The position numbers and the translations under genes were made by a program. A DNA stretch of 64,000 bases from Mytilus edulis. Lineage: Eukaryota. This document shows, piece after piece, positions 44,645-64,000 of the stretch. Positions within the stretch are counted from its first letter, which is position 1; every line of letters starts with the position of its first letter. The stretch is from positions 11,036,001 to 11,100,000 of the forward strand of contig NC_092347.1 in NCBI RefSeq assembly GCF_963676685.1. Reading direction: 5' to 3'. The notes under the pieces are model-generated. The model saw only the letters and a list, made by a program, of their open reading frames with translations, did no database searches and was not told where the DNA came from.

Positions 44645-47600
44645 TTATTCTGTATTCATACGCACAAAAATATGGGCTGTACCACTAATCAAAACAAGAA
44701 CAAACAAGCCAAAGCCTAATCTGTCAAGTATGACAGACAGGTACATCCATAGGTCAGGGTCATTTGGTTCCATCGTTATGTCGTCTGATGGCGATTTACG
44801 ACCAGTCATTCCATGGAATAGTTTTACCAGCTGTGTATCCTTAAAGAAAAATATGAATAATCATGTTATTGTATTTTTCAATATCGTTACTAAGTGATTT
44901 GTTCAGTGCTTATATTAGCGTTGATCACTGAATATGTTCTGAAGCAAGAAAAGAAAATCACGGTAGAACTCTTTTAAGTTATCTTCCTTGTAATGAATTA
45001 CAAACTATGTCAATCTGCAATGGAGTTTATATCCTATGATATACAAATATTATACATCTTGACTAAATAAAAAATAATTGTAATAAATATTTTACTATAA
45101 CTATCTTGTCTTCATTATGCTAACTTCTTCAGATTCCATATTGCAATTGATTCCACGTAGAAATGATACTCACTGCTTCCACTCACTCTGTCCAACTTTT
45201 GTCGTAATTTTGTGTTTTCAGATTAAATGTTTTAAAACAAATGAAGTGATCTCGAATACCAAGGAACTATACGGGCTTCCGCAAATATCTGATTTTATTC
45301 ATTTCAAAAATCAAAAAAAGGACACTTAAATTGCTTCCACTACTGATAATGTAAAAAAAAAAACACCAAACAAGTGTTCAATTCTATATAATTTAATTTT
45401 GGATGTAACGCGTCTTCTGATTCTGACGTTATTTTGTTATCAGCCCATAGACATAATTTAGTCATGTGATCGTGACGTCATTAACGTTTTTTTATGGTTT
45501 TCTACGGTTTAAAATGGAATTTAGAATTAAATTCGAAATAACATAAAAAAATGTGGTGCACACTGTTAAATAACCCACTACGCGCGTTATTCAGTGTGCA
45601 CCAATTTTTTTTTATGTAATTTCTTCGTAGACAGAAAAAATATTGCAGTCATTCCTTAAATAAATACATACTGAACACTTGTTAGAGATAAAAAAAAAAG
45701 AAAAAAGAAAAAAAGAAAGAAAACAACAAATAACAACTAAAAAACACTTACTGGTTTAGATTTACAGATATGGTTTTTCATTCCTGGTATTGGAACCAGC
45801 GTTAAAACTGACAGAGGCTGTAAGATATAATACTTGATCGTCTTTGGCATTTTGTTGTGTCCTTTATAATAAACATTCAAAACCAAGACCTGCATTAGAG
45901 TTGATCCACCACTTAATACAAGTGTAAATTTCAGGAACGTTGCTGAAACAAAGGGAAAACATTGCTTTGAAAGTTAAAAGTATAAACCATGAACTGTATT
46001 TGGCATTTTTAGATTTTTTTTTATTGGAGCGTCACTGATGAGTCGTTTGCATACGAAACGTGTGTCTATCTTACATAATTTTAAACCTTATATATATATA
46101 TTTAAGAGCCCAGGTGGTCGTGTGGTCTAGCGGGACGGCAGCAGTGCAGGCGATTTGGTGTCACGATATCACAGTAGCATGGGTTCGAATCCCGGCGAGG
46201 GAAGAACCAAAAATTTGCGAAAGCAAATTTACAGATCTAACATTGTTGGGTTGATGTTTAGACGAGGAGTATTATATATTATATATATATAGAGATATGA
46301 TGAGTCTATTTACACACTTTAATCACGAATTAACATAATGGTTAAAATAAATATTCTTTCTTAAAGAATGTTGAAGATTATGTATAAACAAAAAAATATA
46401 TAAAATAGTCTCTTGTCAGTCTTTTAGAATGAATGTTTGTAATGTTATATTTCACTTAGAGACTTTATTTAAATATTTTGTACTTTCTGCTTTTGATTGT
46501 CTTGTCATATACAATAAAATTACACACACAAAGCTCACATATACAGTTGACAATAAAGTCAGCAAGCTTGTCACTTTGTGTGGCCTTGGCAGGCAGGTTT
46601 TCATTTGACAGAGGAAGCCGAGCCTAGGACGTTAAATCAGCACAAAAGAAAAAAAAAAGAACTACATACATATCAAAGGTTCAACGTCAGCAGAAGGTGG
46701 TAATTTCTCAGCAACCAACATCTGAAAAACGGAAATGGTCAACATAACAGTCAGTTGTAATCCTATTTTCTCTCCAGAGTCAACCGGAAGTATAAACCCT
46801 AAAATGGCAATAGACGTAACCAGCATTGACGGGATGATAATGTTTATTACATAACCGGTTGGTTTCCTTTTCATATAAACATAAACAGTCACATCCGGGT
46901 ACGGTTCTGGGCAACATCCATAAATAACTTCATGGCGGACGATTTCACCTTTAGTGATAGTCCACTCTGCGTTTTCTTTAGTTTGGGACAGGTCCACCTT
47001 ACCAACCAGTGATGTGACATCGATTTCGAATCCATTATGAACCCATGAACCAAATGTTAACGTGCATATTTGTGAATCAAAAGGAAATCGAGACACATCC
47101 AACTGACAAAATGTTTCTAGTTTTGTGGGAAACGTATATTTCACAGTACCATCGCTATGAATTATAGCTCTGTAATCAAGCAATCCAAAAAACTCCTCAG
47201 CAACACTGAAAAATACAACATTTTACATTGCAATCTAAGTGTATAAGTAAGAGAACACAAGTAACATTTCTAGATATCCAATTAGTTTAACAAGCTAATT
47301 TCTTTTTTGAGGTTGGAAAATTTTTTCACGTTTGCAATCGGCTTATCTACAGAGTTGGCAGTATCATGAACATAATTTTTATACACTGTTGGCATTAATG
47401 ACGAAATGCGTTTGATATAATTGGAATGCAACTTAAGATACTATTAGTATTCTCATTTTATAAATTTAAGTAATAATTGTAAAAAAAAAAAAGCAAGTTT
47501 AAGTAGAAAAAAGATACGTACCTTTCATACAGGGTGATATCTGGCATCCACACAGATTCTATGGGTAAAATAATTTTATTTGTACCGTTATAGTCTGTTA

Positions 47601-50600
47601 CGTTCCAAACCAAATTACAGTCAAACCAGCCCTGTGTGAATGATGAAGGTTGTGTAGTAAATACATGTATTAATTAAAATGAAGAGGTTTAATTTGCATT
47701 TAAGTCAATAATGGAAATAATATAAATGATTAAAAAAAGGAAACACATCAGACAGGCTTATTTGTTTTATATGGTTGCTCTTTGTTATTTTGCTGTTTCT
47801 TTTTTCACTATCTATCTACTGCTCAGAAAAACAATTATATAGTTACCCATCGCATCCATGCACTGAGTACTAATATTTGTTCTGGTTCGTCCTACAACAA
47901 AGAAAACAATAAAGGTAGAGCTATTATAGTTTTGCCTTTCGTGAAATTACAATGTACACAGGTAAGCGAGACTGGGCAATTTTTTGTTTGCTCCGTGTTG
48001 AAGCACTGTGACTTTGATATGACGAAAAGCAATAAAAGCGCTGTTCCTTTGCTTTTTGTGCTATATCCTTTTTTTTATTATGTAATTGATATTAGAATAC
48101 CACACCTGGCTATTGCAAGTGTATCATTCTCAAGAGTTGAATAATCATGTACTGGTAATTCATTTTGCCTGGTCATCAAATTTAAATTTGGTACTGGCTA
48201 TTTCCGACAATCCAAACAATGTAAATTATGAATAATATTCCTTCTTAACTTTGCTTCTGGTTGTTTTGTTAGCATCATTTCCAGAGGTAAGTTTATTATT
48301 TTTATAAATAAATTATGTATGAAAACATGCAATACTTCTACGACAGAATATAAAAGTTCTAAAAACCTTCTAAGGTAAAGAAGGGGGGGGGGGGCGATTG
48401 AACGCTCATATTATACCCTACCACATTCGTTTTGTGCATGTCCCATTTATCAAGAGTCTGTATCTCAGTGGATATTGTTGGTTCCTGTATTTGTTTTTTT
48501 ATTTGCTTTCAACATACTAGTATTAAGAACGTTTTAAAAATAGCTTATTGTATGGTATTGAACATTAACTTACCAAATTGATCAGCTGACGTATTACCAT
48601 GTCTATGGTAACAGTGACCTTATCTGACCCTTCACAGTATGGAATCACGCTTGATTCATAGTTGTCTCCGATATCAAGTGACAAATTTGTATAACCGGCG
48701 TCCATACCTACATAAAGACATTTAGTAATTTAATTTTTAAATTGTGTTTCCGAATTGCATTTTTGGGGTTAACCTTCATCAAAAACACTCACATATAATA
48801 AATAAATGCAACCTTGGATTCGTAATTATTTGCTACTTGAGGTCCAACTTTGCCTGAATGATAAAATTTTGTGCTTCCTATATTTGTCGATGGCTAAACA
48901 AGAGTAGGATTTGAGAAATTGAAGAAATTGTATGCATAAATAAATAGTTTGCTCTGTTCGCTTTATTTTTTGGGGATAAATGTTCGAGATTGTACAGATT
49001 CATGTTATAATGATATGAGCAAAACAGAAGCATAAAAGCTAAATATTGTGAACGTCACATTGGGTTGTTGCAAAATTTAATTTTGAGGAAAACACTGTTT
49101 TTATAAACCGAAAATTTTCGATCGAAATACACTATTAAAATCGCGCAGGGCCTCTTTTTACACAAAAATCTTACAATAATATCGATCGTAAGTTATACTA
49201 AACATTTTACTACTTTCGAGTATATTTTTCGCGTAATTTTTTTGTGAAATGTGGCCAATACCTCCAGACTGATAGTCTAACAGCATAGATTCTGATTCGA
49301 CAATCATTGATGCATGAACATTAACAGTCCCGTTCCCGAGAAAATTTACCTCACACTAAAATACGATTAATTTACCTCGGAAATTAAACGAAGCTTGATC
49401 TTCTGTTTCATTGTCTTCTAGATTTACACTGTTATTTGAATTCATTCGAGTGGTTGTCATTGGAGCAGTTGACGTCAAATACGTAGACGTTTTGACATCA
49501 GTTGTATACGTAGACGTTTTGGCATCAGTTGAAGTTTCAGTCGTCATGCAAGAATTTGTCGAAGTATTTTCATCGGCTGTTGATAATGCTGCAAGAAAGG
49601 TAAATTATATCCTAATAAAATTTGTCACCCCTTTTGTTGGTCTTTTGACACTCAACTAAAATACAACCAACTACCTCGACACTATCCCAGACAATAAAGA
49701 AAGCATTAGGACTCCCCATGAGAGGCGGCATACAAACTACCCTATCTTGGATCCCAGGTCAGAGTTTTATAGCCGGGAACAAACTAGCGGACCTATTAGC
49801 AAAAGATGCATCACAGAAGGCCCCAAGTCTTCAGGACCAGTACAACGTCATAACAATGTCAGATGTGAAAAGTGCAGTTAAGATGTCAACAAAACTTAAA
49901 TGGCAAATTAGATGGACTAGAAGTGAAACTGGGAGACAACTACATGAATTAGTTCCTATATTGTAGGTAAGACCCATCCACTTAATTATCAAAATCCAGT
50001 TATAAGGAAAACCAGGACAATTTATAACAGGCTACAATAAAATAAATAAATACCGCCATCAGATAGGCCAATCCCTTACGCCATACTTCGAGTGTGGTGA
50101 AGAAGAAAGCACAGAACACTTCCTACTTAATCGTACGAGATAACACCAGGAAAGAGAAGAAATAAAAAGACAGCTGGAGAAACAAAACATCACAATAGAA
50201 CTTCAGATCTCCTTCATGCCACCAACAAAGACAGAGAGATACGAAAGAACAGCGGGTATAATAAGAGTGTTTAAAAGAGTTCAGGGCAATTCTAAGATAC
50301 ATTTAGCCCTAAAGAATTCCAATCCTGCGCCTAAACAAATTAACCTAAGCATAGAGTGTGACATAACTCAGAGAAACTATAGTACCGAGATGAATTAAGC
50401 TAAGTTAAACGCAAAGTCACCAGTTGTGTTAAACTACATGCACATATTGACCTAAGGATTAGAATGAGAATAATAAGGTTAATAGATTTACATATTTTAT
50501 ATTTCATTTTATTTTTATTGTTAGTTCTTTGCCACTAAATTAGAAAAAAAATCAGGAAAGAGCTTTATAATCTCTGACTCTCTCTATTTATATGAAGACT

Positions 50601-53172
50601 ATGCTAGTACGTATGGTGAATTACTTGTACGAGCACTTGTTGTGCTGAAAAATTGTAAATACATGTATAACATTTCCTGTTTTGGGAAATGATGGACATT
50701 GTGACCGTGTATGTTGTACTTTTCCAAGATATTCAAGTATTCTCAATTTCAGTGGAAACGCAGTCAGTCACAAATGTACTTGTGTAGAATGTAGGACAGT
50801 ATGGTTTTGGTTTTGGTTTTCATTTTACTGTAATTCACATAAAGCTGTTCAGAAAACAAATTAAAATGAAGTATCAAATAAGCCGCAAGACATACTAAAA
50901 AAAAATCAATCGTCTTAATATTCGAGAAGGTTAATGGTTGTATTGAGTCATTTTTCATGTTAAGTTTTATTATGAGTTGTCTCTCATATATGGCTCAAAT
51001 ATTCTTATATATATACTAGAACACACCCGTGATATCGCGGGTCTGTGACTGAATTAAAGAATATAACTATGCGTAAGCCTTATTTTAGTATTGGTATTGT
51101 CATTTGATAAAGTCATGCCGATTATAAGTCTAAAGATGCACAGTTTTCTCTGCTTTCACCATCTTTCTTTTTGAACCCGTCGACCTAGAACTTATCAATT
51201 ATTGGTATTATTAATTTTATTTGGAAGACAAAAGGGCCTGGAAAGGAGTATAATTTAATTAACAGCATTGGCCTTTATGAGTTATAAATAAAGTTGAATT
51301 CTTTGATTTGCTGTTTTACGTCATTCCGGCTAACAAATTGAAAACTGTACATGCTGTACCTATACGCCTTATTTTAAGTCCAGATTTTTATTATTCGTAT
51401 TGTCATCTTAGAAAGAGTTTTCTCTGCTTTCACAATCTTTCTTTTTGAACCCGTCGACCTAGAACTTATCAATTATTGGTATTATTAATTTTATTTGGAA
51501 AACAAAAAGGCCTGGAAAGGAGTATTATTTAATTAACAGCATTGCCCTTTATGAGTTATAAATAAAGTTGAGTTCTTTGATTTGCTGTTTTACGTCATTC
51601 CGGCTAACAAATTGAAAACTGTACATGCTGTACCTATACGCCTTATTTCAAGTTAAGTCCAGATTTTTATTATTCGTATTGTCGTCTTAGAAAGTCATAT
51701 TGATTAAAATACTAAAATCGGAAACAATGTAACAATGATCAAATTAAGTAGTGTCAACCCTGTGATGACAAACCGTGAATATAGCAAAATCCAAAGTACA
51801 GCGTTTGGTGGTGCGCCTGTCAGATGCGGAACGTACAGATAAGGTAATAGGTAACAGGTTAATATACTATTGGTATCGGTATCGGATTCGACCCGGAACT
51901 TCTTAATTATTGGCAATATTAATTATGTGGAAAACAAAAGGATCTGGAGTGGTGCAATTTTTAATCAACAGCATTGTACTATATTAGTTATATATAAAGT
52001 TGAATTCTTTGATTCATCGTTTTTACGTGATGACGGCTGACAAATTGGACCTCGTCATTTTAGTATTACTAGAACACACCCGCGAAATCGCGGGCATTCA
52101 GAGCGGAGTTAAAAGTATGTAAAGTGTTGTTAGAAGTTTTATACCTCCTCCTTCATTTCCAAAATTCCCAATTTTTGGTTTTCTATCAATTTCAATATGA
52201 ACATACATTTAGTATGTTATGAACATTTAAGTAAGGAGCCTGTAGTTCAGTGGTTGTCGTTTGTTTGTGTGTTACATATTTGTTTTTCGTTCCTTTTTGT
52301 ACATAAATAAGGCCGCTAGTTTTCTCGTTTGAATTTTTTTACATCGTCATTTCGGGGCCTTTTAAAGCCGAGTATGCGTTATGGGCTTTGCTCGTTGTTG
52401 AAGGCCGTACGGTGACCTATAGTCGTTAATTTCTGTGTCATTTTGGTCTCTTGTGGAGAGTTGTCTCAACATGGCAATCATACCACATCTTTATTTTTGT
52501 AATCAATGAATTTTGTAAAATATTTAATGAATGGAGAGTTTCAGAAGAAGGTATCAAAAGTTCACATGAATAGTTTTAGCGCTTATCTGTATATTACTAT
52601 ATAAATAAAGTGTATTTACTTTCAATTATTAGTTTAGTAATCGATCCATGGTGGTCAATTGACATAGTATACAGACCCTCTCCATTTAATAAACTCTGTA
52701 CAGAATTAAAATACACTTTATTCGTACTATTTGTTTGTTCAAAGTATACAGAAAAACGCAAACCGGAAGTATAATCTGACTTAAAATTTCGTCCAATGAC
52801 GGGACAATATCCGGATGCCTTTTTTCTCGTTTTTCTCCAAAAATAACTCAATCTGAATAATCATATGAATGGATGACAAATGCGACTATGCACTGTACAT
52901 ATAGGACACAGAGTCGTGTTGATTAATTTATTGTGGAAAGAAGAGAAGCGACACCAAAAATGAGGTCTTCTCGTTTAATAGTATAGATAGATATAACGCA
53001 AAAAGTGCTATCCCCTTTGACAACGTTAGAGACTGGATTGGTTTTTTTTCAATTTTCGCCGGCGTATAAAATTATAATAAACTAAAATATGAATTATTAA
53101 ATGTGTATACAAAAAAATCTTACCTTGTAACATCAAAACATAGAAAGCAAGAAAAACTTTTCTCGAAAACAT
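44645..53172 (-). CDS. nAChR alpha-type subunit with Ser/Thr-rich N-terminal extension, cluster gene 4; 8 exons, ~490 aa
   Basis: Exons in transcript order: 53172-53124 (MFSRKVFLAFYVLMLQ), 49588-49376 (S/T-rich, phase 1-1), 48707-48574 (YESSVIPYC), 47891-47847 (DEPEQILVLSAWMRW), 47631-47522 (WFDC..WMPDITLYES), 47205-46670 (CQLDVSRFPFDSQIC, YGCCPEPY, GEKIGLQLT), 45942-45752, 44839-44645 (WMYLSVILDR, TAA). 1473 nt, open throughout. Confidence 0.92.
46027..46072 (+). ncRNA. Type I hammerhead ribozyme motif (retrozyme fragment), intact core with damaged stems
   Basis: GAGCGTCA-CTGATGA-GTC-GTTTGCA-TAC-GAAAC-GTGT-GTC-TATCTT. Flanks resemble the 24051-24528 repeat. Confidence 0.65.
46106..46270 (+). 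mobile_element. tRNA-derived SINE inserted in a (TA)n tract inside the retrozyme fragment
   Basis: A-box-like GGTGGTCGTGTGGTCTAG and B-box GGTTCGAATCCC at ~46182, followed by a non-tRNA body. (TA)n on both sides; retrozyme sequence resumes as ATGATGAGTCTATT near 46297. Confidence 0.75.
49660..50410 (+). mobile_element. 3' fragment of an RNase H-bearing LINE (I/Nimb-like), decayed
   Basis: WIPGQSFIAGNKLADLLAKDA (RNase H C-terminal WxPGH..GNE.AD.LAK motif), WQIRW, and a decayed zinc knuckle (ECGEEESTEHFLL). Contains stops and frameshifts. Confidence 0.8.
51016..52991 (-). mobile_element. Non-autonomous Helitron containing a second nested Helitron (52069-52987)
   Basis: On the minus strand both elements begin TC (TCTA/TAATACTAAAATGACGAG and TCTATACTATTAAACGAG) and end hairpin + GTGTGTTCTAG (CCCGCGATATCACGGG; CCCGCGATTTCGCGGG). 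The inner element sits at an A|T site. Outer element has an internal ~280-bp duplication around 51140-51690. Confidence 0.8.
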
Positions 53173-53428: not shown

Positions 53429-56400
53429 ATGTTTATCAAACAGAATTTGGCAAGCATAGCAATATTGGCGTTTATATTTTTGTTGAAAATCGGTAAGTAA
53501 TAATTATTTGTCATATTTGCAATTTACCTCTTCTGTTATTTTTTAATATTGTATATATAATTTATCTGTCTCATCCGAATGCTCCTACACCGGTTGGAAT
53601 TACGGAAGAAGTCGCCTACTTACTATAAGTGCTGTTCGGTGTGGGCCAAGGCTCCGTGTTGAAAACCGTACATTGACCTATAATGGTTTACTTTTATAAA
53701 TTGTGACTTGGATTGCGAGCTGTCTCATTGGCACTCATACCACATCTTCCTATATTTATGAAAGTCTGTTTTGTTATGCACAGACATTAAGCGTTATAAT
53801 AATTTGTATGCAAATTTTATAGTTTTAATAAACTCATTATAACATTTCTATCAAATTCTCAAAATTTTCAACATATTTATCAAAAATTGCTTTTATATTT
53901 TGTATACTAAAGCAGTTCTGCTTTTGGCTATTTTCAGTTTTTGTTTTGAGCCTGAGACTTCTGTCGCAAAAAGCGAAACTTGAAAGTGATCCGACTGGTT
54001 TAAACACAAGACCTTAACAAAGTTTCCTCTTCCATTATCAAATCTAACAGTAGCTGGTATTTGCAATATCTATTTACAAATTAAAACTATGTTCATCTAA
54101 GATATTTAGAGTTTATGATGTGATAAGCTCCTGACAAGGCCTCTGACAGGATGGTAACATAAAAAAGAAGATGTGGTATGATTGCCAATGATACTGGCCT
54201 TGAACTCTTCTAGTGTAGCTGAAGTTGTGGCTTTTTCCGATAAAGTGCTCCATTCCCTAGTTGATACTGGGGAGAGGTGGTACATGTATCTGTGTTAGTC
54301 TTTGAGAATACGCTGTTGGTGTATGCGATGTCGATACCTTTAATTTGCTGGTGGACTATCATTCTTCTTCTTCTTCTTCTTTAGTTACCGAATACCATCA
54401 ACTTTTTGAGGATTACTTTCTGTAGGCCCGAGGATATCATCAGCCCAGTAGACAGTACTTTGGTACTGCCATGATTTATAACCAACTATCTAAAACTGTC
54501 CGTTTATAGATTTTTAAATTATACAGACACTTCCTCAGGCAAAGTTGGCATCAGATGGATTAAGTTATTTTCTTATGTCCTTTTTTGGTTTATAGCTCTT
54601 CAACATGTTTGGTCCTAATGCATCCTTGGCTTTTAAATATTCGGCTTTGAGTCTTTCTGGTGAAGATAAATTCAGCAAAACGTCTCGAACGCATTGATTA
54701 TAGGTTTTACAGATCTGTTGAAGTGGACTAAGAAAATGTTATCTAATTTTAGATTTAACAGATCAGAAGTTATTGAACAAGGAAAAGAATGATAGAGCAT
54801 CTAAAAGTGACGACTCTTCTACAAACACAGCAAATATCAACGGTACTGTATGATTGACACAAATCACTGTTTAAAGCGTCTATTTCCTCATATATTATTT
54901 ATTCATATAAAAAAGTTTAAGAAAAAGAAGCGTAACAACCTTAAAATATTAATAACGCAATTTTTTATTTGAATAAACAATTACTTTGCTAAATTTTACG
55001 GTAAAATCCTCAATTGACATTGGTCACGTCGACATCAGATGTCTACATACTGAATTGCCTCAATCCACAAATTAATGTTTGATAACATTTGTAATACAGA
55101 AAAATTGAAATAAAACATCACATTTAATAAATAACACATAGCTGAGAGGGTGATATATAGCAGATTGGTACCCCGAGAAAACATTGTCAACCGCGGCAAA
55201 GCCAAGGTTGACAATGCTTTTTCGATCGGTGGCAATCACCCTCTCAGCTATGTGTTATTTAATTTATTATAGTATACTGAATGTCATATAATTATTGTCT
55301 TTTACAGATCAATTTTATTTAAAAGTGTTTTCTATAACGTGAAATATTTACATAACAACGTTACGTCAAATAATAAGATCTGAGCCAAAACGTAGAACTA
55401 GTATTTTTAATTACTTGATGTAAATTCAATTTATCGTCCTTTAAATTACCGATTTTTGATTGGTCTGGACGAGAGGGTAACTAAAAAAATTGTCACCCGC
55501 TCAGCCATGTACATTGTACATTGGAGCAGTAAATTAACATCCTCGTCTTAGCCAATCAAAATATGGCATTTTAATGTGACGTAAAATAAATCCAAATATT
55601 ATCAACAATATACAACAGATTGAGGACGTGGGGATAGTGATCCGGCGGCGGCGGCGGCGGCGTTAGCTGACTTCTTAAAAGGTTTATATTTTAGAAGGTG
55701 AGAGACCTGGATGCTTCATACTTTGTATATAGATGCCTCATGTTACGAAGTTTCCGTCAGTCACATGTCCAATGTCCTTGACCTCATATTCATGGTTCAG
55801 TGACCACTTGAAAAAAAAGTTCAGAATTTTTGTAATGTTGAATTCTCTTATTATAAGTAATAGAATAACTATATTTGGTATGTGCGTACCTTGCAAGGTC
55901 CTCATGCCCGTCAGACAGTTTTCACTTGACCTCGACCTCATTTCATGGATCAGTGAACAAGGTTAAGTTTTGGTGGTCAAGTCCATATCTCAGATACTAT
56001 AAGCATTAGGACTAATATATTTGGTGTATGGAAGGACTGGAAGGTGTACATGTCCAACTGGCAGGTGTCATCTGACCTTGACCTCATTTTCATGGTTCAG
56101 TGGTTATAGTTAAGTTTTTGTGTTTTTGTCTGTTTTTCTCTTACTTTATGCAATAGGTCTACGATATTTGTTGTATGGAATGATTGTAAGGTGTACATGT
56201 CTAGCGGGCAGATGTCATCTGACCTTGACCTCATTTTCATGGTTCAGTGGTCAAAGTTAAGTTTTTAAGTTTTGGTCTTTTTATCTAATATTATATGCCA
56301 AAGGTCAACTATATTTGGTGTATGGAAATATATTATGATCTGGTTTTATTTGACCATGACCTCAATTGCACGGTTCATTGCACAGTGTTAAGTTTTTGTG

Positions 56401-59400: not shown

Positions 59401-62400
59401 ATGTTATTTGATCCCTTTTAATTATTTGTAAAAATCTAATACTATTTCAATGATACTTTGCAGGATGAACCCGAACAAATTGCGAAATTCAATATGTGGA
59501 TGCGCTTGGTAAGTCAAATGTTAGGCTTATTTGTACGTTTGTTTGATTGTTTATGTCTGTTGTGTTGTATGTCTGTAATGTATGTTTACACATCTGTGAC
59601 TGTAGTAAACCAATTATTTCCACATTAACATATAATGTCGGTTTAGCTTGCTTAAACAGTTTAGTCAATATAAGGGAACTATAAATAACTGCCATACAAG
59701 GAGAAGGTTAAGCTACGTAAAACTAGGTTACATCCACCTTTTTCTTTAATACAAGGAGAAGGTTAAGCTACGTAAAACCAGGTTACATCCACCTTTTTCT
59801 TTAATACAAGGAGAAGGTTAAGCTACGTAAAACCAGGTTACATCCTCCTTTTTCTTTAATACAAGGAGAAGGTTAAGCTACGTAAAACCAGGTTACATCC
59901 TCCTTTTTCTTTAATACAAGGAGAAGGTTAAGCTACGTAAAACCAGATTACATCCACCTTTTTCTTTAATACAAGGAGAAGGTTAAGCTACGTAAAACCA
60001 GGTTACATCCTCCTTTTTCTTTAATACAAGGAGAAGGTTAATCTACGTAAAACCAGGTTACATCCTCCTTTTTCTTTAATACAAGGAGAAGGTTAAGCTA
60101 CGTAAAACCAGGTTACATCCTCCTTTTTCTTTAATACAAGGAGAAGGTTAAGCTACGTAAAACCAGATTACATCCACCTTTTTCTTTAATACAAGGAGAA
60201 GGTTAATCTACGTAAAACCAGGTTACATCCTCCTTTTTCTTTAATACAAGGAGAAGGTTAAGCTACGTAAAACCAGGTTACATCCTCCTTTTTCTTTAAT
60301 ACAAGGAGAAGGTTAAGCTACGTAAAACCAGGTTACATCCTCCTTTTTCTTTAATACAAGGAGAAGGTTAAGCTACGTAAAACCAGGTTACATCCTCCTT
60401 TTTCTTTAATACAAGGAGAAGGTTAAGCTACGTAAAACCAGGTTACATCCACCTTTTTCTTTAATACAAGGAGAAGGTTAAGCTACGTAAAACCAGGTTA
60501 CATCCTCCTTTTTCTTTAATACAAGGAGAAGGTTAAGCTACGTAAAACCAGGTTACATCCTCCTTTTTCTTTATCAAATACCCGTACAGAAACAGGAATA
60601 TGACAGTTGTTTTTCACTCGTCGTCCTTTTAAGTTGATTAAGTTTGATTGTAGTAGTTTTATAGACTACTTGTTTTCATGCCCCATTTATGGGCATTATG
60701 TTTTTTGGTTAGTGCGTTCGTTCGTCCGTTCGTTTGTCCGTCTGTCCCGCTTCAGGTTAAAGTTTTTGGTCGAGGTAGTTGAAACTTAGTACAAATGTTC
60801 CCTAAGGTATGATTTTTCCAATTTTAATGCCAAGTTAGAGTTTTTATCCCATTTTTACGGTCCACTGAACATAGAAAATGATAGTGCGGATGGGGCATCC
60901 GTGTACTAGGGACACATTCATGTTTTAATTTACCTAGGAGTTCGTTGTCTTTGTTATAATTTTGCATGACTTTAAGCCTCATCTTGTATTTACAAAATAT
61001 AAATGCATGTGATGAACAAAACAAAGACCACTCTGAAATTAAGTTCACATAACATCTCAAAAGATTAACCCTGACAGCTATGCCTCTTTTTTAAAACTTT
61101 AATGTGGGTTATCATGATCTTATATTTCAAATATTTATCAAACATGATAGAGTAACACACACTACAGATTATAAAACTACACTTCTGAAAATACATAATT
61201 ATACTGATTTCAAGGTATTATCTAGGAACAACACAAAAGCATGTACAATGCAGATATTTAGGTTTATAACGATACGGTGACCTTGCCATTTTTCAGATAT
61301 GGACAGATTGTAGATTATACTGGAATCCTGAGGATTTTGGAAACATCACAGAAGTTGTTTTGCCTTTTGATTTGTTATGGACTCCAGATCTAACCTTATA
61401 CGAAAGGTTTGTTTACTAAGTATATACAATTAGATGCGGAGTATATGTTAATGTATCAAGTCCCAGTCACACTGTCACGTTTCAAGAGCTTCATTTTACT
61501 ATGTTTTGAAAGCGTAAAACGGGAATATACGTAACGAAGCGTATCGAAACGTAGTGATCCTTTGTTCAAAACTGGACCTGCCCCGTATGTTTTGAAAATT
61601 CAACAACAACCGTGCAAAAATTCAAACGAAGTAGAAACCTAGTAAATACGTATCAAAGCTTAGCGGAACGCAACAAAACGTGCTTACTACGTATCGAAAC
61701 GTATCAATGCGTGGTGAAATCGTGGGTCTACACGTACATGTACTAATACGTAGCAAAACGTGATAAGAACGTAGCACAAACCTAGTAAAACCTAGTTTTC
61801 AAAATAACGGGACATGTTTGTTCAAAACGTAGTTGAAACGTAGAATTTTAAAATGTAGTAAAACTTGACAGTTGCCACAGTCACACTCACGTTTCAAGAG
61901 TTACGTTTTACTACGTTCTGAAAGCGTATCGAAACGGGAATATACGTAACGAAGCGTATTGAAACGTAGTGATCCTTAAAATGTTTGTTCAAAACGGGAC
62001 TTGCCCTGTATGTTTTGAAAATTTAACAACAAACGTAAAAAATGTGCCAACTACGTATCGAAAGGTATCAATGCGTGGTGGAAACGTGGTTCTACACGTT
62101 CTTATACGTAGCAAAACGTGGTAAGAATGTAGCACAAACCTAGCTTTCAAAATAACGGGACATTTTTATTCAAAACTTGGTTGAAATGTAGCATTTTAAA
62201 CCGTAGTAGAACGTGACAGTGCGACTGGGGCTTTAACAACCTGACTTAAAACAAAACCAGACAACGGGAAGTCAACGTACGGCCTTAACCAAATGACACA
62301 TTTCATTGATTGTCATTTTTCTTGTTTTTACGATCAAAAGACGTAAAAGAACATCCGTCTATTGTTGGTTACTGTCTTTTGCCTCTAGATATATATACAG

Positions 62401-64000
62401 GTATTGGTTTCTTTTGTCGTTAGAATACTGTCTCATTGACGTATACATACCTCATATTTTCTTTTGTGTGTCTTTAAATTACTTTCTACTCTTTTTAAAA
62501 ATGAAGTGTGCTTTTAAAACAATTTACATGCATCAATCTGACTTTAAAAAGACAGTGAAAGCCAATGGTATGTAACATGCAATTGTTTCATCATAAATTT
62601 CAGTTTCCATGAAAACTATTTCGCGGTCAAACCTTACAGTCCACGATCCACATACTTTGTAATATTAGTTTTCTATTTTTATTTGATTTGGTTTGATTTG
62701 TTTTGTTATTGTTTTTGTTTGTTTACTCGTTGTGTTTTTGTTTGTTAAATGTCACTGCTAGAAGACGAAGCATGTTTCTGTGTTAACAGTTTACATTTTA
62801 TTTTACAGTGTAGCTGAAGAGTTTTATGGCTTTAAAGACTACAGACCTAGAGTAATGTTTGACGGAACAGTATATTATAATTTTCCCACTTTAGTAGAAT
62901 CCGTGTGTCAAGTTGATGCTCTGAAGTTTCCATATGACACTCAAATATGTCTATTAACTTTCGGATCCTGGGTGTTTTCAGGATCGGATCTAGATGTATT
63001 TTCGAGTAAAAAGTTTGCCGATGTTTCGTCTATAAAAGACCACGTGGAATGGGTTGTTGAAAGTGTTCCAATCGTAAGACATGTAGTTTTCTACCCGGAG
63101 CCATATCCTGACGTGACTTTTTACGTTCACATCAGACGAAAGCCAGCGTCATACGTCACTAATATCATAATACCATCACTTTTGATCACTCTCATATCGG
63201 CGCTTGGATTTTTACTTCCGGTTGAATCGGGAGAGAAAGTTGGGCTACAACTGACAGTTATGCTGGCAATATTTGTATTCCAAGTACTTGTAGCAGACCA
63301 ATTACCACCTTCTGCAGATTCTACGCCATGGATATGTAAGAATGCGTAAACTTTTTTTATATACATTTAGATGACGAGACTAAAAAAAGTGTGTATAATG
63401 GGCAAAGTTAAGCTTTGTAGAGCCCAGTATAGTATTTCTGTTTTCGCGACTGCTTCAAAATTATCTTTAACATTTATAGGTGTTTAGCAATTTATTAAAA
63501 CAAGGAAGCGATGTGTCAAATATGTGCAATAATTATAATTTATTTATATCAGCAAATTGCTTTTCATTTTTTCACATTTTTTAATGTTTACTAAGATCCT
63601 ACTTTGAAATGATGAAAATATACAAGCTATATTCTAGAACAGATTTTTTTTCTGGAACATGCTAACCTCTTTTTATAGGTTTGTGAATTAAATTACCATA
63701 TTTCGAATAAATCACAACAAACAAACAGGATCAATTATGTTGTGACATGTGTGGTTACGAGTGCGATCTCTTACCGAACTCTGTTGGTTCAAATATTACG
63801 ATTTGTATTTCAGCTGTCTTCCTGAGTTTCACTCTAATATTATGTGGAGTGGCAAGTCTTCTGCAAGTTCTGGTTATAAGCGTACATTTCCAAGATAAGG
63901 ATATGCCCAACTGGACGAAAAGATATATTCTTTACCCTCTTGCTCTTGTGTCAGGTGTCCAAACTCAAGGTTTACAACGTACTTGTTCTCAAGATGGTCA
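53429..64000 (+). CDS. nAChR non-alpha subunit (loop-C Cys-Cys deleted), cluster gene 5; truncated by the window edge
   Basis: Exons 53429-53492 (MFIKQNLASIAILAFIFLLKI), possible 54753-54842, 57859-57992 (YDQALLPKC), 59464-59508, 61297-61406 (WTDC..WTPDLTLYES), 62809-63335 (527 nt; CQVDALKFPYDTQIC; loop C VVFYPEPY; GEKVGLQLT), 63814->64000 (TM3/MX). Confidence 0.92.
54753..54842 (+). CDS. Candidate extra phase 1-1 exon of gene 5 (polar N-terminal extension DLTDQKLLNKEKNDRASKSDDSSTNTANIN)
   Basis: Acceptor AATTTTAG, donor G|GTACTG, 90 nt, open in the phase required between exon 1 and the 57859 exon. Same position as the extension exon of gene 4. Confidence 0.55.
55625..56665 (+). mobile_element. 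Helentron-associated (HINE-like) element with internal ~146-bp tandem array
   Basis: (GGC)n microsatellite after GGGATAGTGATCC, about six units carrying TGACCTTGACCTCATTTTCATGGTTCAG-like sequence, 3' end GTGCACTCTTG followed by a T-run. Confidence 0.7.
57228..57407. repeat. Long foldback palindrome with a 33-bp internal duplication
   Basis: Left arm ACTAATCGCCGTATTTGAATATCAAAAATAAGACAAC, centre ACGAGTGCGCAGCACGAGT, then a reverse-complement arm. Similar foldbacks at 45535-45623, 55126-55264 and 58122-58240. Confidence 0.85.
58890..59274. mobile_element. MITE with 19-bp imperfect TIR, nested in another interspersed repeat
   Basis: AATAGACTACTTTCGAGTT ... AACTCGAAAGTTGTCTATT. It interrupts the AAAAGTAAAATCACAAAAATAC..CACATGGCAA|TCAAATGAC repeat also seen at ~22200 and ~38000. 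Confidence 0.7.
59695..60573. repeat. 55-bp tandem repeat, 16 near-identical copies, in a gene 5 intron
   Basis: Unit TACAAGGAGAAGGTTAAGCTACGTAAAACCAGGTTACATCCTCCTTTTTCTTTAA starts at 59695, 59750 ... 60520. Confidence 0.97.
60673..60925 (+). mobile_element. Short HINE-like element
   Basis: TTTTCATGCCCCA subterminal repeat matches TGGGGCAT near the 3' end; (CGTT/CGTC)n microsatellite; 3' GTGT..ACAC hairpin and T-run. Confidence 0.6.
61459..62233. mobile_element. Tandem dimer of a ~400-bp MITE (Harbinger-like TIR)
   Basis: CCCAGTCACACTGTCACGTT ... AACGTGACAGTGCGACTGGGG. The unit restarts at ~61880 (GTCACACTCACGTTTCAAGAG) and is rich in ACGTA motifs. Confidence 0.65.

Follow-up and report, generated by a model that had tools for sequence, protein, structure and literature searches.

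The locus examined here raises the question of whether a Ser/Thr-rich segment, lying after the signal peptide and ahead of the ligand-binding domain (LBD) of a nicotinic acetylcholine receptor (nAChR) gene in Mytilus edulis, is in fact coding, transcribed, and maintained, and what it might do on the outside of the receptor. An earlier note on the window, that is, on the entire 64,000-nucleotide stretch of DNA analyzed, had described it as a mucin-like stalk exon of the gene numbered 4. We find that exon 2 of gene 4 is real, conserved, length-polymorphic, and skippable. It is already contained within public gene models, yet it is undescribed in the literature searched, where the titles and abstract openings retrieved for this combination of features included no paper describing it.

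Gene 4 and Its Receptor Family

The features of gene 4, by position in the window, are as follows.

53124..53172, minus strand: exon 1, ATG and n/h region of the signal peptide, 49 nt, phase-1 donor (residues 1-16 of XP_071166732.1)
49376..49588, minus strand: exon 2, 213-nt phase 1-1 cassette exon, 71 residues, Ser/Thr-rich, with Cys30 and three N-sequons
49479..49531, minus strand: 27-nt tandem repeat within exon 2 (Tandem Repeats Finder: period 27, 2.0 copies, 96% match)
48574..48707, minus strand: exon 3, helix alpha1 and beta1 of the LBD, Cys112
47847..47891, minus strand: exon 4, 45 nt, loop D Trp
47522..47631, minus strand: exon 5, 110 nt, Cys152 and loop A Tyr182
46670..47205, minus strand: exon 6, 536 nt, Cys-loop (C217-C231), loop B Trp238, loop C Tyr279-Cys281-Cys282-Tyr286, M1, and M2
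45752..45942, minus strand: exon 7, 191 nt, M3 and the start of the intracellular loop
44645..44839, minus strand: exon 8, end of the intracellular loop, M4, and stop

The eight exons run from 53172 to 44645, and the joined coding sequence of 1473 nt gives an intact protein of 490 residues. It is identical to the M. edulis RefSeq protein XP_071166732.1, which probably comes from the same assembly as the window and hence is not independent evidence. The protein matches PF02931 (183 bits) and PF02932 (73 bits), and nAChR alpha subunits rank highest in both the sequence and the fold comparison. It contains the Cys-x13-Cys loop (C217-C231) and the vicinal pair C281-C282 in loop C, and residues Y182, W238, Y279, and Y286, together with the loop D Trp, align to the same residues of human alpha7; these are the aromatic-box residues of loops A to D. 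The Glu of the M1-M2 linker also aligns with alpha7, and the channel is predicted to be cation-selective. Gene 4 is an intact alpha9/alpha10-like nicotinic subunit (annotated as alpha-10-like) and a part of the bivalve nAChR expansion described in PMC6896357, with 151 related loci matched in this genome. At position 109 gene 4 has Ile and gene 5 has Leu, where Arg stands in 236 of 291 aligned domains (Arg-Pro after helix alpha1). Intron 1 of gene 4 contains a tandem array of 2 x 274 nt (95%, 51142-51694).

The Cys-loop and loop C cysteine pairs of gene 4 are canonical. Cys112 and Cys152 occur together in 109 of the 291 aligned domains, neither occurs in 181, and one occurs alone in a single domain, a co-occurrence count that is inflated by related sequences. 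These two residues likely form an extra disulfide that marks this receptor subfamily, and, because they co-vary almost perfectly, Cys30 in exon 2 is likely the only unpaired cysteine of the ectodomain.

Exon 2 Is a Real Exon

The acceptor of exon 2 is pyrimidine-rich and ends in AG (...TTTCTTGCAG), its donor is GTAAAT, and the phase is 1 at both ends. Translation gives 29 Ser plus Thr among 71 residues (10 Ser and 19 Thr) with one Pro and one Cys, and sequons at NTS24, NNS68, and NET76. The 213-nt length, phase, splice sites, and translation that the earlier note had reported all hold, as does its internal 27-nt repeat, which Tandem Repeats Finder recovers. As a chance control, both strands were scanned for AG..GT segments that measure 150 nt or more, contain no stop, and preserve phase. 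Two passed on the minus strand, exon 2 itself and one that starts at the true acceptor of exon 7, and eight passed on the plus strand; all nine segments other than exon 2 contain at most 15% Ser plus Thr. Transposon exonization as the source of exon 2 was considered and rejected on a single genome match for the exon DNA, a weak result in that the search skips common words.

Inclusion, Skipping, and Conservation in Mytilus

Exon 2 is present and in frame in 11 of 12 records of gene 4 orthologs from four Mytilus species, a count that leans toward intact exons since annotated proteins are pre-filtered for open frames. The 11 inclusion records comprise two from M. edulis, five from M. galloprovincialis, M. 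trossulus X1, one from M. coruscus, and two Logan proteins. The two Logan contigs, of 1546 and 1576 nt, contain an open reading frame of 470 residues that joins the end of exon 1 to exon 2 and exon 2 to exon 3, and, as gene 4 extends over 8.5 kb in this genome, both exon 2 junctions must be spliced in these contigs. The twelfth record, M. trossulus X2 (XP_063431837.1, 419 residues), equals X1 minus exactly the 88-residue exon, and skipping of exon 2 is in these gene models an annotated form. Hence exon 2 is borne out as coding, included in transcripts, and kept in orthologs, and the ortholog records show neither an invariable 53124 to 48707 junction nor an exon that is absent or frameshifted, the outcomes that had been named as arguing against it. 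No ortholog of gene 4 from M. californianus appeared in our searches.

Several public models deserve comment. The M. galloprovincialis RefSeq forms X1, X2, and X4 (P0002, P0032, and P0031) differ only by 12 and 21 residues in the repeat, and these "isoforms" are likely repeat-length alleles modeled as splice forms because such differences are too short for ordinary introns. CAG2214911.1 (P0030) and CAC5398427.1 (P0038) are gene 4 models fused to unrelated long sequence, at front and end, and are likely annotation errors.

The Repeat Varies in Length

The number of repeat units is 1 in the coruscus type, 2 in the M. edulis sequence here, 4 in M. trossulus, and 3-6 in M. galloprovincialis, so that counts of 1, 2, 3, 4, 4, 5, and 6 are seen across the ortholog records and the exon ranges from 63 to 116 residues, with 33-45% Ser plus Thr. 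The repeat of exon 2 is a coding variable-number tandem repeat (VNTR) of 1-6 units. In the comparison of edulis with coruscus, indels aside, identity is 47/62 in exon 2 and 8/16 in the signal peptide, versus 190/211 in the LBD, 86/88 in M1-M3, and 60/68 in the intracellular loop, and by these counts exon 2 outside its indels diverges faster than the receptor core. Cys30 and at least one sequon are nevertheless kept in 9 of the 9 exon sequences counted, covering all four species, and the aromatic-x-aromatic-Arg|Gly end of the exon is kept in four of four Mytilus species.

Rarity among Nicotinic Receptors

To place this extension we used a sample of 303 proteins, representing the nearest few hundred nAChRs and not the superfamily, in which 295 match the LBD profile and 274 align to the profile start (29 dropped). 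The median spacer is 4 residues in the 206 proteins with a hydrophobic leader. A spacer of at least 40 residues occurs in 18 of the 262 nAChRs other than gene 4, and 0 of the 262 combine such a spacer with at least 30% Ser/Thr; the near misses are a 39-residue spacer at 31% Ser plus Thr and a 60-residue spacer at 28%. In the same genome, an intronless nAChR check covered 20 of the 151 loci, picked for long open frames; 19 of the 20 could be aligned and 16 have at least 30 upstream residues, and similar tails were not seen at these loci, where no 30-residue window exceeds 20% Ser plus Thr. A search with the exon only among longer proteins gave the two gene 4 clusters alone (2 of 80 candidates), and a search of the ESM Atlas with residues 17-135 gave LBD-fragment clusters below 0.9 and nothing else. 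Within this sampling the Ser/Thr-rich extension is still rare, despite the paralog exons described below, and gene 4 represents an uncommon variation rather than a novel class of receptor.

Long polar N-termini do occur elsewhere. Dreissena XP_052268388.1 (P0336), found after the count of 262, has an N-terminus of 73 residues, 20 of them Ser/Thr, that contains four sequons, and Glandiceps XP_077988497.1 (P0218) has a polar one of 59 residues with 17 Ser/Thr and 5 Pro; both appear to be independent cases. An intronless nAChR-like gene of the Mytilus genome (L020, C9:31281500-31285500) carries a duplicated, Cys-rich motif after its signal peptide and before the LBD.

The Exon 2 Slot in Gene 5 and Other Paralogs

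The extra exon had been presented, by implication, as unique to gene 4. Genes 1 and 2 do run from the signal peptide straight into helix alpha1, as had been stated. Uniqueness does not stand, since short polar phase 1-1 exons occupy the same place in gene 5 and in five further paralogs on the same chromosome, those of the latter being 60-81 nt long.

54753..54842, plus strand: gene 5 exon 2, 90-nt phase 1-1 short polar exon, the positional counterpart of gene 4 exon 2

Identity to gene 4 is no higher than 42-49% in these six paralogs (gene 5, XP_071166172.1, XP_071170808.1, XP_071166740.1, and two copies). Their short exons share with that of gene 4 the position, the 1-1 phase, the polarity, and the branch of the tree; unlike it, they encode 19-29 residues rich in Lys, Asp, and Ser and are without repeats. 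Sequence homology between the gene 4 exon and the short exons was rejected, as no significant likeness was found in 10 of 10 tests (p 0.075-0.86), and the homology is thus positional only, while 5 of 10 pairs of the short exons among themselves reach p<0.01. The slot is old, and we take its occupant in gene 4 either to have diverged greatly or to be a replacement.

When 36 proteins are placed in a tree with their N-termini left out, 12 exon-2 proteins and one without the exon fall into a single branch (support 97/89); for this labeling, exon structure was examined solely in the present genome, and proteins of other species were labeled by their spacer. The exon-less member of the clade is the P0004 ortholog, and the stem branch of gene 4 is the longest in the exon-2 clade (0.58). 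One gain and one loss would fit this tree, with which a single origin is compatible, though not proven.

Genes 4 and 5 begin head-to-head, with their start codons 256 bp apart, at 53172 on the minus strand and 53429 on the plus strand, and in four Mytilus species the two have neighboring accession numbers. They may share a promoter, and an alpha/non-alpha pairing of the two is possible. At 62798-63334 on the plus strand gene 5 is without the Gly-Cys-Cys of loop C, and the P0023 group also is without these cysteines. The 10 kb just past the window (L002, C4:11100001-11110000) hold a near-identical second copy of the large exon of gene 5, with two exon-1-like fragments nearby; this second copy is a recent partial duplication. 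An intron of gene 5 contains a tandem array of 16 x 55 nt (98%, 59694-60573).

Properties of the N-Terminal Tail

Signal cleavage may follow Ala21, a plausible site by the (-3,-1) rule. AlphaFold, run on an alignment of 20 sequences, models residues 20-87 as coil with a pLDDT of ~26, a low value partly due to the shallow alignment there, and helix alpha1 at 91-103 (whole-model pLDDT 63.7), and the exon 2 segment is predicted to be disordered. It is likely to be both O- and N-glycosylated. An empirical coil-size formula gives an estimated random-coil Rg of 22-33 Å across the alleles. The earlier reading of exon 2 as an unusual Ser/Thr-rich, likely glycosylated extension before helix alpha1 is upheld (29/71 Ser plus Thr, three sequons). 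The term "stalk" does not suit it, as it is a free N-terminus, coil from residue 20 to ~90, with no domain on its end and preceded by the signal peptide alone.

A Proposed Role and Its Rivals

Based on these data, we propose that exon 2 would put ~68 Ser/Thr-rich, predicted disordered, and likely glycosylated residues at the free N-terminus of the subunit, and that after signal cleavage these would extend freely above each subunit, from its top, where a flexible extension may aid folding, assembly, or surface stability, with ligand binding and gating resting on an unchanged core. We infer that the slot arose once in a Mytilus subclade, that the gene 4 copy became Thr-rich and then grew by slippage of 27/36-nt units, and that repeat number is largely tolerated. 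To this reading, in which the extension is glycosylated and flexible, is tolerated at varying length, and promotes assembly or stability at the surface, we assign a probability of roughly one half, and we rank it highest because deletion of N-terminal extensions in GABA-A receptors can lower surface expression or assembly, as reported in PMC4786271. There, GABA rho1 showed reduced surface expression once its extension was deleted, and assembly with GABA-A alpha1 also fell, whereas beta2 and gamma2 were unaffected; the beta2/gamma2 region is described as fairly insensitive to sequence, such that some unstructured peptide may be needed, of any sequence. Against our reading, the assembly role is carried over from GABA-A subunits, two of which were indifferent to deletion, the skip isoform, the exon-less clade member, and genes 1 and 2 show that related subunits manage without the exon, and the retention of Cys30 in four species hints at a more specific role.

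Such a role might be that of an extracellular glycan brush or tether, in which up to five glycosylated chains would lie over the top of the receptor, Cys30 would link subunits, receptors, or a matrix partner, and repeat number and skipping would tune the effect. Retention of Cys30 in all nine exon sequences, in an ectodomain where the remaining cysteines have partners, would fit this, as would the sequon kept in every species and a coil size sufficient to cover the pentamer top. However, four closely spaced species keep many residues by descent alone, the near two-fold range in length speaks against a tuned length, and agonists bind at the flank of the extracellular domain, where a brush should let small ligands through, and we consider this role unlikely. 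Equally tentative is its fullest form, in which a length-polymorphic, skippable brush and a free cysteine would cross-link subunits or anchor the channel to mucus or matrix, repeat alleles and splicing would tune it from outside the folded core, and head-to-head gene 5, devoid of loop C cysteines, would supply the partner subunit expressed alongside it. Two earlier suggestions, mucus sensing and a shield against bungarotoxin or conotoxin, find no support here, and these mussels are unlikely to be under selection from the toxins of snakes or cone snails. We consider it just as probable as the brush or tether role, and so also doubtful, that the exon is purely a neutral passenger at an N-terminus that tolerates polar sequence, with a minisatellite that drifts and only the frame under constraint. 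The faster divergence of exon 2 relative to the core, its length range of 63-116 residues, the annotated skip isoform, and the loss of the slot in one clade member all agree with neutrality, as does the GABA-A epsilon subunit, for which work on rat used a clone without the ~400 Pro/Glx repeat (PMC9312946) and the insertion is read as consistent with relaxed constraint (PMC1975676). Full neutrality sits less easily with a slot that is kept in six paralogs so distant from gene 4, or with an exon better conserved against coruscus than the signal peptide is.

Two further possibilities are far less probable than these. In one, proposed in the earlier note, exon 2 encodes a cleavable pro-segment removed after Arg87, which the aromatic-x-aromatic-Arg|Gly end common to the four species might suggest; yet the first 100 residues contain no dibasic or R-x-x-R motif after residue 5, the CGA codon for this Arg and the following G form the AG of the splice donor, a constraint by itself, and the paralog exons are without a terminal Arg, and we therefore set this proposal aside as very improbable. 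In the other, exon 2 is rarely used and most transcripts join exon 1 to exon 3. Skipping does preserve the frame and one M. trossulus isoform shows it, but 11 of 12 records and both transcript-length contigs include the exon, and the cluster lists no M. edulis RefSeq form other than the one with inclusion; we consider rare use highly unlikely.

Comparison with Known Systems

The sequence before helix alpha1 in pentameric channels has so far been probed mostly by artificial tags and deletions, and gene 4 offers a natural allelic series (63-116 residues and a skip form) for the role of this sequence. If length or Cys30 alters function, this would be a nicotinic receptor modulated by a coding VNTR; if not, the repeat would simply be tolerated within a rapidly evolving gene family and would serve at most to mark species or alleles in Mytilus. 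Like the bivalve alpha9/alpha10-like nAChRs of Jiao et al. (2019, PMC6896357) and the Alpha-A10 clades of PMC13174522, gene 4 has a full LBD and four transmembrane segments, belongs to a tandem array, and retains all of the aromatic-box positions. The long Ser/Thr repeat extension is extra in gene 4, and term searches of these two articles bring up no description of such an extension.

The comparison with mucins is only partly apt. The tail of gene 4 has in common with mucin PTS domains and O-linked sugar stalks a high Thr/Ser content, tandem repeats of variable number, and predicted disorder, and to that extent "mucin-like" applies, in a loose sense only. It differs from them in being short, in lying at a free N-terminus, and in having 1 Pro per exon (1 among 71 residues here), and the Pfam Mucin family (PF01456) reaches only 12.3 bits against the longest allele (cut-off 34.7); exon 2 alone matches no Pfam family.

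Closer parallels exist within the Cys-loop superfamily. The extensions of GABA-A rho1, alpha1, beta2, and gamma2 (PMC4786271) are, like the gene 4 tail, unstructured sequence before helix alpha1, which in GABA-A receptors can affect assembly or surface expression; Ser/Thr repeats or length polymorphism are not described for them in the portion of that article consulted. In rodents, the GABA-A epsilon subunit carries a Pro/Glx repeat of ~400 residues in its extracellular domain (PMC9312946), and 483 residues are reported as inserted in exon 2 (PMC1975676). The epsilon insert is rich in Pro, Glu, and Gln, ~6 times longer, and part of an anion channel, whereas the gene 4 segment is rich in Thr and Ser, contains sequons and one Cys, and constitutes a whole symmetrical exon. 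Nevertheless, both are lineage-restricted, repeat-built, low-complexity extracellular segments in exon 2 of a Cys-loop subunit, and for both, versions without the segment are used or annotated.
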